Part shown: positions 32,149-33,450 of the stretch, one piece after another
Position numbering within the stretch: position 1 is the first letter of the stretch
Layout of the letters: every line of letters starts with the position of its first letter
Origin: an uncultured Eubacteriales bacterium
GTDB lineage: Bacteria; Bacillota; Clostridia; Christensenellales; UBA1242
Direction of reading: 5' to 3'
Length of the DNA: 64,000 nt
Assembly: GCA_900552105.1 (NCBI GenBank)
Contig: URYH01000002.1
Coordinates: 10,652-74,651, forward strand
Position numbers and translations under genes: made by a program
The notes under the pieces: model-generated
Databases searched by the model: none
The model's input: the letters and a program-made list of their open reading frames with translations, nothing else
What the model was told of the DNA's origin: nothing

Positions 32149-32817
32149 CTATTTAATTTTTTTTGTGAATATGCTCAAAAATTTTCCACAAGCAGAAACA
32201 ATTTTTGTTGACTGATTGATTGCATATCTTTTTGCAACCGCCTTGCCAAAAATTGTCAACCCCGCAATCACCGCACTCACCGCCGCAGCAATAAAGACTT
32301 GTTCTGTGCTGGTTATTTTATCTGTCACAATTTTTACAACAATCGTTGCACCAATGGCTCCACTCACAATTCCGCACACATCACCAACAACGTCATTACA
32401 TATGCTTGAAACCTTCTCTGCGTTTTTGATGAGATAAATACTTTCTTTTGCCCCTCTCACCTTTCGCGAAGCCATACTTCTAAACGGATAGATGTCAGCC
32501 GCCGCAACAGCAACCCCAATCATATCAGAGATAACTGCGAGAGCCAAGAGCGGAATGAGCATTATGATTGACACAACAAGCCCAGTCCTCGACAAAACAA
32601 ATTCTGAAAAAACCGAAACGGAAAAAGACAGAACCAATGTTATTATCAAAATTCTTATCGGCCAACGCCAGACATTATTTTTCTTCTTTAGCGCCTTGAC
32701 CTTTTCATTCTTTTTCTTTTTTTCTTCTTCAGTTTGATTTTGCGTAGTGTTCAATTTTTCTGGTGAATTTTCTTCCCCAGACGGAGGAACCTCGCCCATT
32801 GTTTCAACCTCTTTCAT
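32149..32817 (-). CDS. oapA: 4-TM membrane protein, candidate OLE-associated protein A
   Basis: 222 aa with a charged Lys/Glu-rich N-terminus and then four hydrophobic segments. It follows the large structured RNA with no intervening terminator and has an AAGGAAA RBS. The assignment rests on context. Confidence 0.5.
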   Translation of the reverse strand: MKEVETMGEVPPSGEENSPEKLNTTQNQTEEEKKKKNEKVKALKKKNNVWRWPIRILIITLVLSFSVSVFSEFVLSRTGLVVSIIMLIPLLALAVISDMIGVAVAAADIYPFRSMASRKVRGAKESIYLIKNAEKVSSICNDVVGDVCGIVSGAIGATIVVKIVTDKITSTEQVFIAAAVSAVIAGLTIFGKAVAKRYAINQSTKIVSACGKFLSIFTKKIK

Positions 32818-32860
32818 AAATTTCCTTTTTTAACACAACAATGTTGTGGAATATTTGATT

Positions 32861-33415
32861 TGTGGAGACAGCCCGCAAGATAAACCTTGCGATATAGGTT
32901 CGGTTGGATTTCCCAAGACCCAAACTCCTCGTCACCGAGAAAGCAGTTTCCATTTAATTGAGTCCTTGCACCGAATCGCCACTTAAATCACACTATAATC
33001 CCCTGCGAACAAGCGCGAGTGCGCAACAGTCTAGAAGCTTTCCTTGACACGCATTTCTATTTCTTATCCTTTTTTGCAGAAACAAATTTCATGAGCAACA
33101 CTTTTTGTTGTTGGCCGACTAACAAAAAATGTTGGCGCTCAATCCCAATGCCCCACTCAAGGCAGGCTACACTGCACACAGCCAGTGACCGCAATGCAGG
33201 TTCAGCTCAAACAGTGACAATGTCACTTCTTTTGAGTCTCCACGATTTCTGGGACAAAAATGTTATGCCGTTAACAAAAGCCCAAAAATCTTAACTCCCA
33301 GCACCAGCCCCGGTTTGGGCAACCAAAGCCAGCACAAGGAACTTCACAGATATGCCCTTCGACGCTTTGTCGTCCTCAAAATAGAAATGCCCGACTAGAA
33401 TACTGCATCTCCACG
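32861..33415 (-). ncRNA. ole: large structured ncRNA, candidate OLE (ornate, large, extremophilic) RNA
   Basis: A ~555-nt ORF-poor stretch that is clearly more GC-rich than its flanks. The 5' GTGGAGA (rc of 33408-33414) pairs with the 3' TCTCCAC (rc of 32862-32868), and there are many internal hairpins. The RNA has its own strong promoter and lies between xseB and a 4-TM protein, inside a nusB-xseAB...argR-recN neighbourhood, which is the published OLE context. Confidence 0.55.
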
Positions 33416-33421
33416 ATATAT

Positions 33422-33450
33422 ATTATAACATAAGAAAAAGAATAATGCAA
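33422..33450 (-). promoter_or_regulatory. sigma-A-type promoter of the large ncRNA
   Basis: The minus strand reads TTGCAT (33445-33450) -17- TGtTATAAT, with the -10 hexamer at 33422-33427. The predicted start falls at or next to the GTGGAGA closing-helix strand. Confidence 0.6.

Follow-up and report, generated by a model that had tools for sequence, protein, structure and literature searches.

A short-form OLE RNA gene and a probable oapA side by side in an uncultured gut Clostridia bacterium

Introduction

What occupies the stretch, poor in open reading frames (ORFs), that separates xseB from the gene of a 222-aa membrane protein in an uncultured Eubacteriales bacterium (contig URYH01000002.1)? 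The DNA analyzed around it, hereafter the window, measures 64 kb, and its first-pass annotation, made from the letters alone, had proposed for the stretch an OLE (ornate, large, extremophilic) RNA with its own promoter, paired with an OapA-like protein of four transmembrane helices or, failing this, an unassigned large structured RNA. The analysis presented here leads to the first of these answers, as we hold it close to certain that the locus is a genuine OLE RNA together with its obligate membrane partner OapA, arranged as a two-gene unit. To this call it adds a refinement which the first-pass annotation did not see, namely that the RNA is of a shortened form, devoid of the P13 hairpin.

Identity of the RNA and its closing helix

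The search with the Rfam covariance model of OLE (RF01071), which had been suggested as the check on the call, returned an end-to-end match of 392.5 bits against a gathering score of 50, running from position 1 to position 616 of the 616 of the model, not truncated, with an E of 7.6e-113 in a scan of 6 kb and of 8.2e-112 in a scan of the whole window. The OLE call is supported, and the fallback, a new large structured RNA unrelated to OLE, is excluded by this full-length match (E ~1e-112), nothing being left in its favor after testing.

Compared with the nearest species representative (L001, a metagenome-assembled genome, MAG, of Christensenellales), the RNA shows an identity of 94.4%, against 77–91% for nusB, xseA, xseB, oapA, argR, and recN; in this comparison it is the most conserved segment of the locus, and therefore its most constrained element. 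As in the full-length OLE RNAs of the Halalkalibacterium halodurans type, the conserved 5′ GCAGUAUUCUAGUC segment, the long P3 hairpin, and P4–P6 are kept, P8, P9, P10–P12, P14/P14.1, and P15 are present (RF01071 alignment), a terminal helix is found, oapA lies immediately downstream, and ole is set among nusB, xseA, xseB, argR, and recN. It differs from them in length, 553 nt instead of ~600–630 nt, and in the lack of ispA, dxs, tlyA, nadK, and folD, both in the cluster and in the 64 kb as a whole.

The terminal helix merits separate treatment. It had been claimed that GTGGAGA closes the RNA by pairing with TCTCCAC, and the two segments (33414–33408 and 32868–32862) are indeed exactly complementary, at a distance of 553 nt from end to end; the helix grows to nine pairs, two of them G-U (33414–33406 with 32870–32862), and we take it to be the one drawn as P1 in published models. 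In the structure line of RF01071 both termini of the RNA are unpaired, and the helix was therefore tested independently, in an alignment of the OLE RNAs of the window and of 25 related loci (columns 9–17 with 656–664), the 26 loci referred to below. Standard pairs fill 87.8% of the cells, as opposed to 29–57% when the 3′ partner is slid by one to three columns, and seven of the nine pairs have changed on both sides, in 56 cells. The covariation score is 0.644, compared with 0.26 for column shuffles (none of the 500 reaches the observed value) and at most 0.2 for the slid controls. The same helix is built from very different sequences, such as GUGGAGA/UCUCCAC in the window, GAAUGACG/CGUCAUUC in L012, and CGAAGG/CCUUCG in L006, and the minimum-energy fold of the window RNA also closes with it, the energy of this single-sequence fold having a z-score of −3.9 relative to dinucleotide shuffles. 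The closing helix is real.

The surroundings of the RNA agree with the description first given, of an ORF-poor stretch richer in guanine and cytosine (GC) than its flanks. Between xseB (33458–33664, minus strand) and the 222-aa ORF, on the same strand, the ORF listing contains no sense-strand ORF of at least 50 aa; and the GC fraction of the RNA stretch is 0.45–0.48, against 0.375 for the whole window and 0.25–0.35 for the adjacent intergenic DNA. The sole ORF of at least 50 aa inside the stretch, which encodes 91 aa in antisense (33019–33294, plus strand), is dismissed as an artefact of a GC-richer RNA gene.

The membrane protein

In Pfam, the 222-aa protein matches only the CNNM/DUF21 family (PF01595), with 27.7 bits and an E of 2.5e-6, the cutoff being 28.4, and the same scan finds in it neither CBS nor CorC domains. 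OapA itself has been described as weakly similar to the CNNM/DUF21 domain (PMC11332333). The AlphaFold2 model of the protein (mean predicted local distance difference test, pLDDT, 78.6; predicted template-modeling score, pTM, 0.66) contains four long helices, at residues 51–77, 80–106, 133–163, and 170–201, with short helices in the loop, preceded by a Lys/Glu-rich N-terminus, predicted to be disordered, of approximately residues 1–50 (pLDDT 41–57). The six best fold matches in the PDB are all transmembrane domains of the CNNM family, with MtCorB (7M1T, 7M1U) and CorC (7CFG, 7CFF) among them; these CorB/CorC matches have a probability of 0.99–1.00 and a query-normalized TM-score of 0.40–0.50, while all others remain at a probability of 0.33 or below. 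For their structural overlay on OapA, Fernando and Breaker used one of these, 7M1U (PMC11332333).

The protein database holds 1778 homologs, almost all of them unnamed, and the exact 222-aa sequence is present on 91 gut-metagenome contigs, the longest of them reaching 0.6 Mb; near-identical members of its cluster occur on contigs as long as ~1.1 Mb. Across 50 homologs, W52, S71-E72, D98, D142-x-x-G145-D146, and the loop S117-x-K119-V120-x-G122-A123 are invariant or nearly so; within the basic loop (S117-R-K-V-R-G-A-K124), the conservation of S117, K119, V120, and A123 reaches 90% or more and that of G122 is complete. This loop, which would lie on the cytoplasmic side, fits the conserved positively charged cluster of OapA (PMC12265935).

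The association with the RNA was followed in 31 homolog loci, a small sample, biased toward gut MAGs, that was obtained from single-sequence peptide patterns against genome contigs. An OLE RNA lies upstream on the same strand in 29 of them, or 29 of the 30 assessable (nhmmer, with Rfam for the loci cut by contig or locus ends). The other two are L028, which has no upstream sequence, and L010, with 3.4 kb upstream. L010, whose oapA homolog is at 3428–4021, is the only locus with ample upstream sequence in which neither nhmmer nor Rfam detects an OLE RNA; its OapA homolog could be one with no ole beside it, or the RNA could be elsewhere.

Thus, the protein shares with OapA a size of ~200 aa, four predicted transmembrane helices, a conserved basic cluster, a weak CNNM/DUF21 homology unaccompanied by CBS or CorC domains, and a gene directly downstream of ole; every feature of OapA that could be tested was found in it. 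The proposal of an OapA-like protein with four transmembrane helices is supported by the CNNM similarity, by a confident fold match to CorB/CorC alone, and by the linkage to OLE. A difference exists with respect to the OapA of H. halodurans, compared here by its description only, which has an N-terminal signal sequence (PMC12265935) where our protein has the disordered, Lys/Glu-rich segment of ~50 residues. With the CNNM-family Mg2+ transporters MpfA, CorB, and CorC it has in common the fold of the transmembrane domain; however, it is devoid of the CBS pair and the CorC/HlyC domain, its identity to them is 15–17%, and its Pfam score falls just below the gathering cutoff, and it is therefore a relative of these transporters, not a member of the group.

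Promoter, terminator, and transcription unit

The promoter claimed for the RNA (TTGCAT-17-TGtTATAAT) is present with the sequence first given, and a consensus scanner finds an overlapping TTTGCA-18-TATAAT with the TG extension. It ends 7 nt upstream of the helix, the predicted transcription start, at ~33415/33414, being the first base of P1. Of the 26 loci, 23 have an equivalent element of sigma-A type (at least 9 of 13 matches) upstream of the terminal helix, at 4–16 nt from P1 in 22 of these and at 28 nt in L017, and the TG extension accompanies it in 21; the remaining three loci show TGTTAATAT at the place of the promoter. Because both motif and position are conserved across RNAs that are otherwise highly diverged, the comparison supports a dedicated promoter, presumably in use, from which transcription would start right at the 5′ end of the RNA. 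Such a promoter is not new in principle, since the ole of H. halodurans, which this locus resembles in this regard, lies within a large operon and yet has a promoter of its own (Lyon et al., 2022; PMC9723947).

At the other end, the terminator scan bears out that nothing separates the RNA from the membrane-protein gene: the sole terminator-like site of the minus strand between xseB and argR comes after oapA. The first-pass annotation had located this terminator correctly as to the gene that it follows, although its stem occupies 32134–32112, followed by the T run, and not 32105–32133. From OLE to oapA there are 44 nt on the same strand. This spacer contains a small hairpin (Table 1) that has no T run and was not called by the scan, and is therefore not a terminator; it could act as a stabilizer of the 3′ end or as a processing signal. 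In L001, at ~4815–4835, CAUGAC-GAAA-GUCGUG is found at the equivalent place, with the pairing kept between the two sequences compared.

Downstream of oapA, the 346-nt intergenic region that precedes argR (31803–32148, minus strand) holds the ole-oapA terminator and promoter-like sites (for example 31878–31851). It is 82% identical to the nearest species, a value that matches the conservation of the coding genes, and in one metagenome a 33-aa ORF has been annotated within it (L032, 3750–3851).

A different organization appears in L018, L022, L024, L019, L026, L030, and L025, from uncultured Bacilli, some of them binned as Bacteroidales: in these more distant loci a hairpin resembling a terminator, T run included, stands after OLE, and oapA is found 0.6–2.4 kb downstream. 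Between them are, among others, the genes of a polysaccharide deacetylase (L022) and of a KilA-N protein (L024), together with opposite-strand ORFs that carry no annotation. With a terminator of its own for OLE and a distant oapA, the two genes are uncoupled in these seven loci.

The short form of the RNA

Relative to the RF01071 consensus, the window RNA has a P2 hairpin 6 nt shorter, a deletion of 13 nt (model positions) in P7, and only 2 nt in place of a 21-nt model segment between the P12 region and the UAAAGGGAAAC segment. In 19 of the 26 loci this segment is a stem with a GNRA-type loop (GGCAAC, GGUGAC, or GGCGAC), that of P13; neither the window nor any of its six closest relatives has it, the window having 11 nt between the anchors where the 19 loci have 27–30. 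P7 follows the same division, with 32 nt here, 31–36 nt in the six nearest relatives, and 45–64 nt in 17 of the other 19 loci, in the last two of which it is almost entirely missing. P8 and P9 measure 27 and 93 nt, within the 26–33 and 91–98 nt of the other sampled loci.

The meaning of the loss of P13 comes from H. halodurans. OapB binds there primarily to the P13 hairpin, which carries a GNRA tetraloop and a bulge and docks into P12.2 in a four-way junction, while the GUGA hairpin of P14.1, which the window RNA retains, is a weak secondary site (Yang et al., 2021; PMC7936274). Without P13, the junction would be a three-way one and the main docking site for OapB would be lost, and, because P13 is absent, the OLE particle of the window probably works without OapB. 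Among the OLE RNAs already described, those termed variant 1 have shorter P7–P9 and, in many cases, a P13 whose end is without the OapB site (Fernando and Breaker, 2024; PMC11332333). The window RNA, with its short P7 and no OapB-binding nucleotides at the tip of P13, fits variant 1 in its two most distinctive respects, as judged from the alignment.

The Pfam scan of the window ORFs, with PDB searches added for small ORFs, was also read for partners of this kind (OapB-like or OapC-like) and yielded no L7Ae-type protein and, as the only KOW-type protein, EF-P. A 110-aa ORF (46867–47199, minus strand) lies between ylxR (47144–47410, DUF448) and infB, presumably at the position that the L7Ae-family gene ylxQ has in Bacillus; with no Pfam match at E ≤ 1 and no PDB sequence match, it is not callable as an L7Ae/OapC-type protein. 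Two further small ORFs of the window gave no Pfam or PDB similarity in the same search.

Gene neighborhood and host

Of the 76 non-overlapping ORFs with 60 aa or more in the 64 kb, 70 went into the Pfam scan of the neighborhood; the remaining six overlap tRNA genes, a T-box leader, or the OLE gene. Along the minus strand, the genes follow one another as efp, spoIIIAA to spoIIIAH, a gene of the Asp23 family in what we take to be the yqhY position, nusB, xseA, xseB, ole, oapA, argR, recN, spoIVB, and a spo0A-like gene, the neighbors originally claimed for the RNA (nusB, xseA, xseB, argR, recN) being recognized by their Pfam and NCBIfam domains. We assume this gene order to be the ancestral arrangement of Bacillota, seen in Bacillus subtilis too, in which ole-oapA would occupy the place expected for ispA, dxs, and tlyA. 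The scan found no polyprenyl synthase, DXP synthase, FtsJ/TlyA, NAD kinase, or FolD domain in the ORFs covered, and the absence of ispA, dxs, tlyA, nadK, and folD, first noted for the locus, extends to the entire window. Associations of ole with yqhY, argR, and sporulation genes are already known (PMC12265935).

Sporulation genes are abundant in the window (spoIIIAA–AH, spoIVB, spoVA, spoIIAA/AB, and a likely sigF beside spoIIAB, all by Pfam), and the nearest loci come from Christensenellales and Clostridia gut MAGs. To judge from these genes and relatives, the host belongs to the uncultured, spore-forming Clostridia of the gut, has its close relatives among the Christensenellales MAGs, and, given the gut and faecal sources, is presumably an anaerobe, which fits the anaerobic or extremophilic Bacillota where OLE is expected. 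A relative at L005, Candidatus Caccopulliclostridium gallistercoris, has a genome of 1.0 Mb with 35.4% GC and is placed by GTDB in the order 4C28d-15, family UBA1242 (PMC8035907); in the NCBI taxonomy its genus is Clostridia incertae sedis. The host thus resembles those of variant 1 in being an uncultured gut bacterium known from metagenomes, with relatives of small genome such as this species of 1.0 Mb. Variant 1 is commonest in TANB77, though also found in many other clades (PMC11332333).

Table 1. Features of the ole-oapA locus, in window coordinates.
Feature	Position	Strand	Evidence or remark
Sigma-A-type promoter, extended −10	33422..33450	-	TTGCAT 33450–33445, 17-nt spacer, TGtTATAAT 33430–33422
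OLE RNA gene, as delimited by RF01071	32849..33427	-	Rfam match, 392.5 bits
OLE RNA bounded by P1, 553 nt	32862–33414	-	Ends of the terminal helix
5′ strand of closing helix (GUGGAGAUG)	33406..33414	-	Pairs with 32870–32862
3′ strand of closing helix (UGUCUCCAC)	32862..32870	-	Covariation across 26 loci
Shortened P7 hairpin (CUCAAA...GUGACAUUGUCAC...UUUGAG)	33206..33236	-	Spacing of anchor columns
Site of missing P13 GNRA hairpin, junction 32966/32965	32961..32975	-	Anchor spacing, RF01071 alignment
P14.1 hairpin with GUGA tetraloop (CUCG-GUGA-CGAG), retained	32928..32939	-	RF01071 alignment; conserved in the 26-locus alignment
Spacer hairpin CACAAC-AUU-GUUGUG, 6 bp	32834..32848	-	Between OLE and the start of oapA
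oapA, 222 aa	32149..32817	-	CNNM similarity, four long helices, linkage to OLE
Intrinsic terminator-like hairpin	32112..32134	-	9-pair stem, four G-C pairs, TTTTTGT tail

Discussion

Nothing found in the analysis contradicts the identification of OLE and OapA, although several points weigh against the interpretation as a whole. The 222-aa protein has no match in NCBIfam, the published OapA profile being a custom one (PMC11332333), and its assignment to OapA is based on the linkage, the architecture, and the CNNM-like fold. The correspondence with variant 1 is partial, as P8 and P9 are no shorter than in the sampled loci and are near the Rfam consensus, and the nearest named relatives belong to Christensenellales or to 4C28d-15/UBA1242 (PMC8035907), in contrast to the TANB77 that are the commonest hosts of variant 1.

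An alternative explanation for the short form is that it corresponds to a decaying, non-functional relic of an OLE gene. The loss of P13 and the truncation of P7 relative to the Rfam consensus would be compatible with it, and rare defective ole genes are known from the literature (PMC11332333), but those genes sit in genomes without OapA whereas here an intact oapA follows, whose exact protein recurs on 91 metagenomic contigs. Moreover, a relic would hardly be the segment of the locus with the highest conservation (94.4% against 77–91% for the neighboring genes), nor would it retain 392 bits over the entire model. The identical deletions are found in seven loci whose RNAs differ at many positions, and the short form is therefore stably inherited. 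We give this explanation practically no credit.

The other possibility that deserves discussion is that the RNA acts mainly in cis, as a 5′ leader (riboswitch-like or a processing element) that controls oapA, instead of in trans. The arrangement in the window lends itself to this, with a spacer of only 44 nt, no terminator between the two genes, and one predicted promoter for both; however, OLE has a terminator-like hairpin of its own in several distant loci, where oapA is 0.6–2.4 kb away, with genes between the two, some on the opposite strand, so that there the RNA is maintained without being the leader of oapA. In addition, OLE accumulates as a discrete RNA of ~630 nt that binds OapA, OapB, and OapC (PMC9723947, PMC12265935). 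A predominantly cis-acting leader thus seems to us very improbable, if marginally less so than a relic, and the locus is best read as an OLE RNA with its OapA.

If so, the unit would work as follows. Transcription most likely starts at the dedicated extended −10 promoter, the first bases made being the 5′ strand of the terminal helix, with read-through from nusB-xseA-xseB as a possible additional source of transcript, and would proceed through oapA to end at the terminator that follows it. The 553-nt RNA would then fold into the conserved OLE architecture, closed by the 9-bp terminal helix. By analogy with H. halodurans, the RNA would be bound by dimers of OapA, which would keep it at the cytoplasmic membrane or possibly within it; the RNA itself would dimerize, and its long P3 region may span the bilayer, in line with recent cryo-electron microscopy work suggesting that OLE may span the membrane (reviewed in PMC12265935). 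The resulting ribonucleoprotein would help the cell against excess Mg2+, cold, short-chain alcohols, and poor carbon sources, and the RNA probably supplies the regulatory or sensing roles which in the MpfA/CorB transporters are performed by the cytosolic CBS and CorC domains. The analysis itself bears out the identity of the RNA, its terminal helix, the conserved promoter motif, the lack of an internal terminator, the fold and family of the protein, and the genomic linkage between the two molecules; the binding of protein to RNA, the location in the membrane, the role in stress, and the independence from OapB are what we infer for this locus from published work (PMC12265935, PMC11332333, PMC9723947).

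A further step, conceivable though in our judgment somewhat doubtful, would be that an OLE without P13, with its own promoter and with oapA, constitutes a minimal self-contained particle, able to dispense with OapB and with the isoprenoid and NAD genes among which ole is usually found. The sampled lineage, that is to say, the window and the six gut Clostridia loci closest to it, would in that case offer a naturally minimal system in which the core function of OLE could be defined. Essentially the same idea was raised for variant OLE RNAs by Fernando and Breaker (2024; PMC11332333), and the novelty would be confined to the specific lineage and the observation on the promoter.

The RNA class, its protein partner, the linkage between them, the own promoter, and the shortened variant have all been published, and this very locus has probably been counted already by Fernando and Breaker, who had 2,822 hits in Bacillota (PMC11332333). 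It is therefore no new kind of element, but a clean example of a naturally minimized OLE: a compact promoter-ole-oapA-terminator unit, without P13 and with a short P7, away from ispA, dxs, tlyA, and nadK as neighbors, in a gut lineage of small genomes. Minimal versions of this type help to reveal what OLE can do without, both in parts of the RNA and in partners, and in practical terms the region can now be annotated as ole and oapA.

Other features of the window

At the spo0A position, downstream of spoIVB, there is a gene for a 232-aa protein (27568–28266, minus strand) whose C-terminal half matches Spo0A_C in Pfam with 53.9 bits and 1LQ1 in the PDB with an E of 2e-5. In its N-terminal half no Response_reg match is found at E ≤ 1, the PDB match to a receiver domain has an E of only 0.054, and the usual N-terminal acidic pair has apparently been replaced (LLFSNKN); the product may be a Spo0A with a degenerate receiver domain.

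A T-box leader (2325–2532, minus strand; 95.9 bits against a gathering score of 93) lies directly upstream of pheS (1273–2292, minus strand), which is an ordinary arrangement. Two paralogs of cytidylate kinase (14452–15114 and 17508–18164, both on the minus strand) are 2.4 kb apart, one in its usual place, with genes for an acyltransferase and an S1-domain (rpsA-like) protein downstream, the other adjoining a short-chain dehydrogenase gene. Eight tRNA genes, on both strands, occupy 12063–13049, near spoIIAA, spoIIAB, and the likely sigF (10126–11620), and another tRNA gene is at 15170–15242. Amid these otherwise conserved sporulation and housekeeping genes are a 474-aa ORF without a Pfam match (6134–7558, plus strand) and, near it, a 656-aa BspA-type leucine-rich-repeat protein (8101–10071, minus strand).

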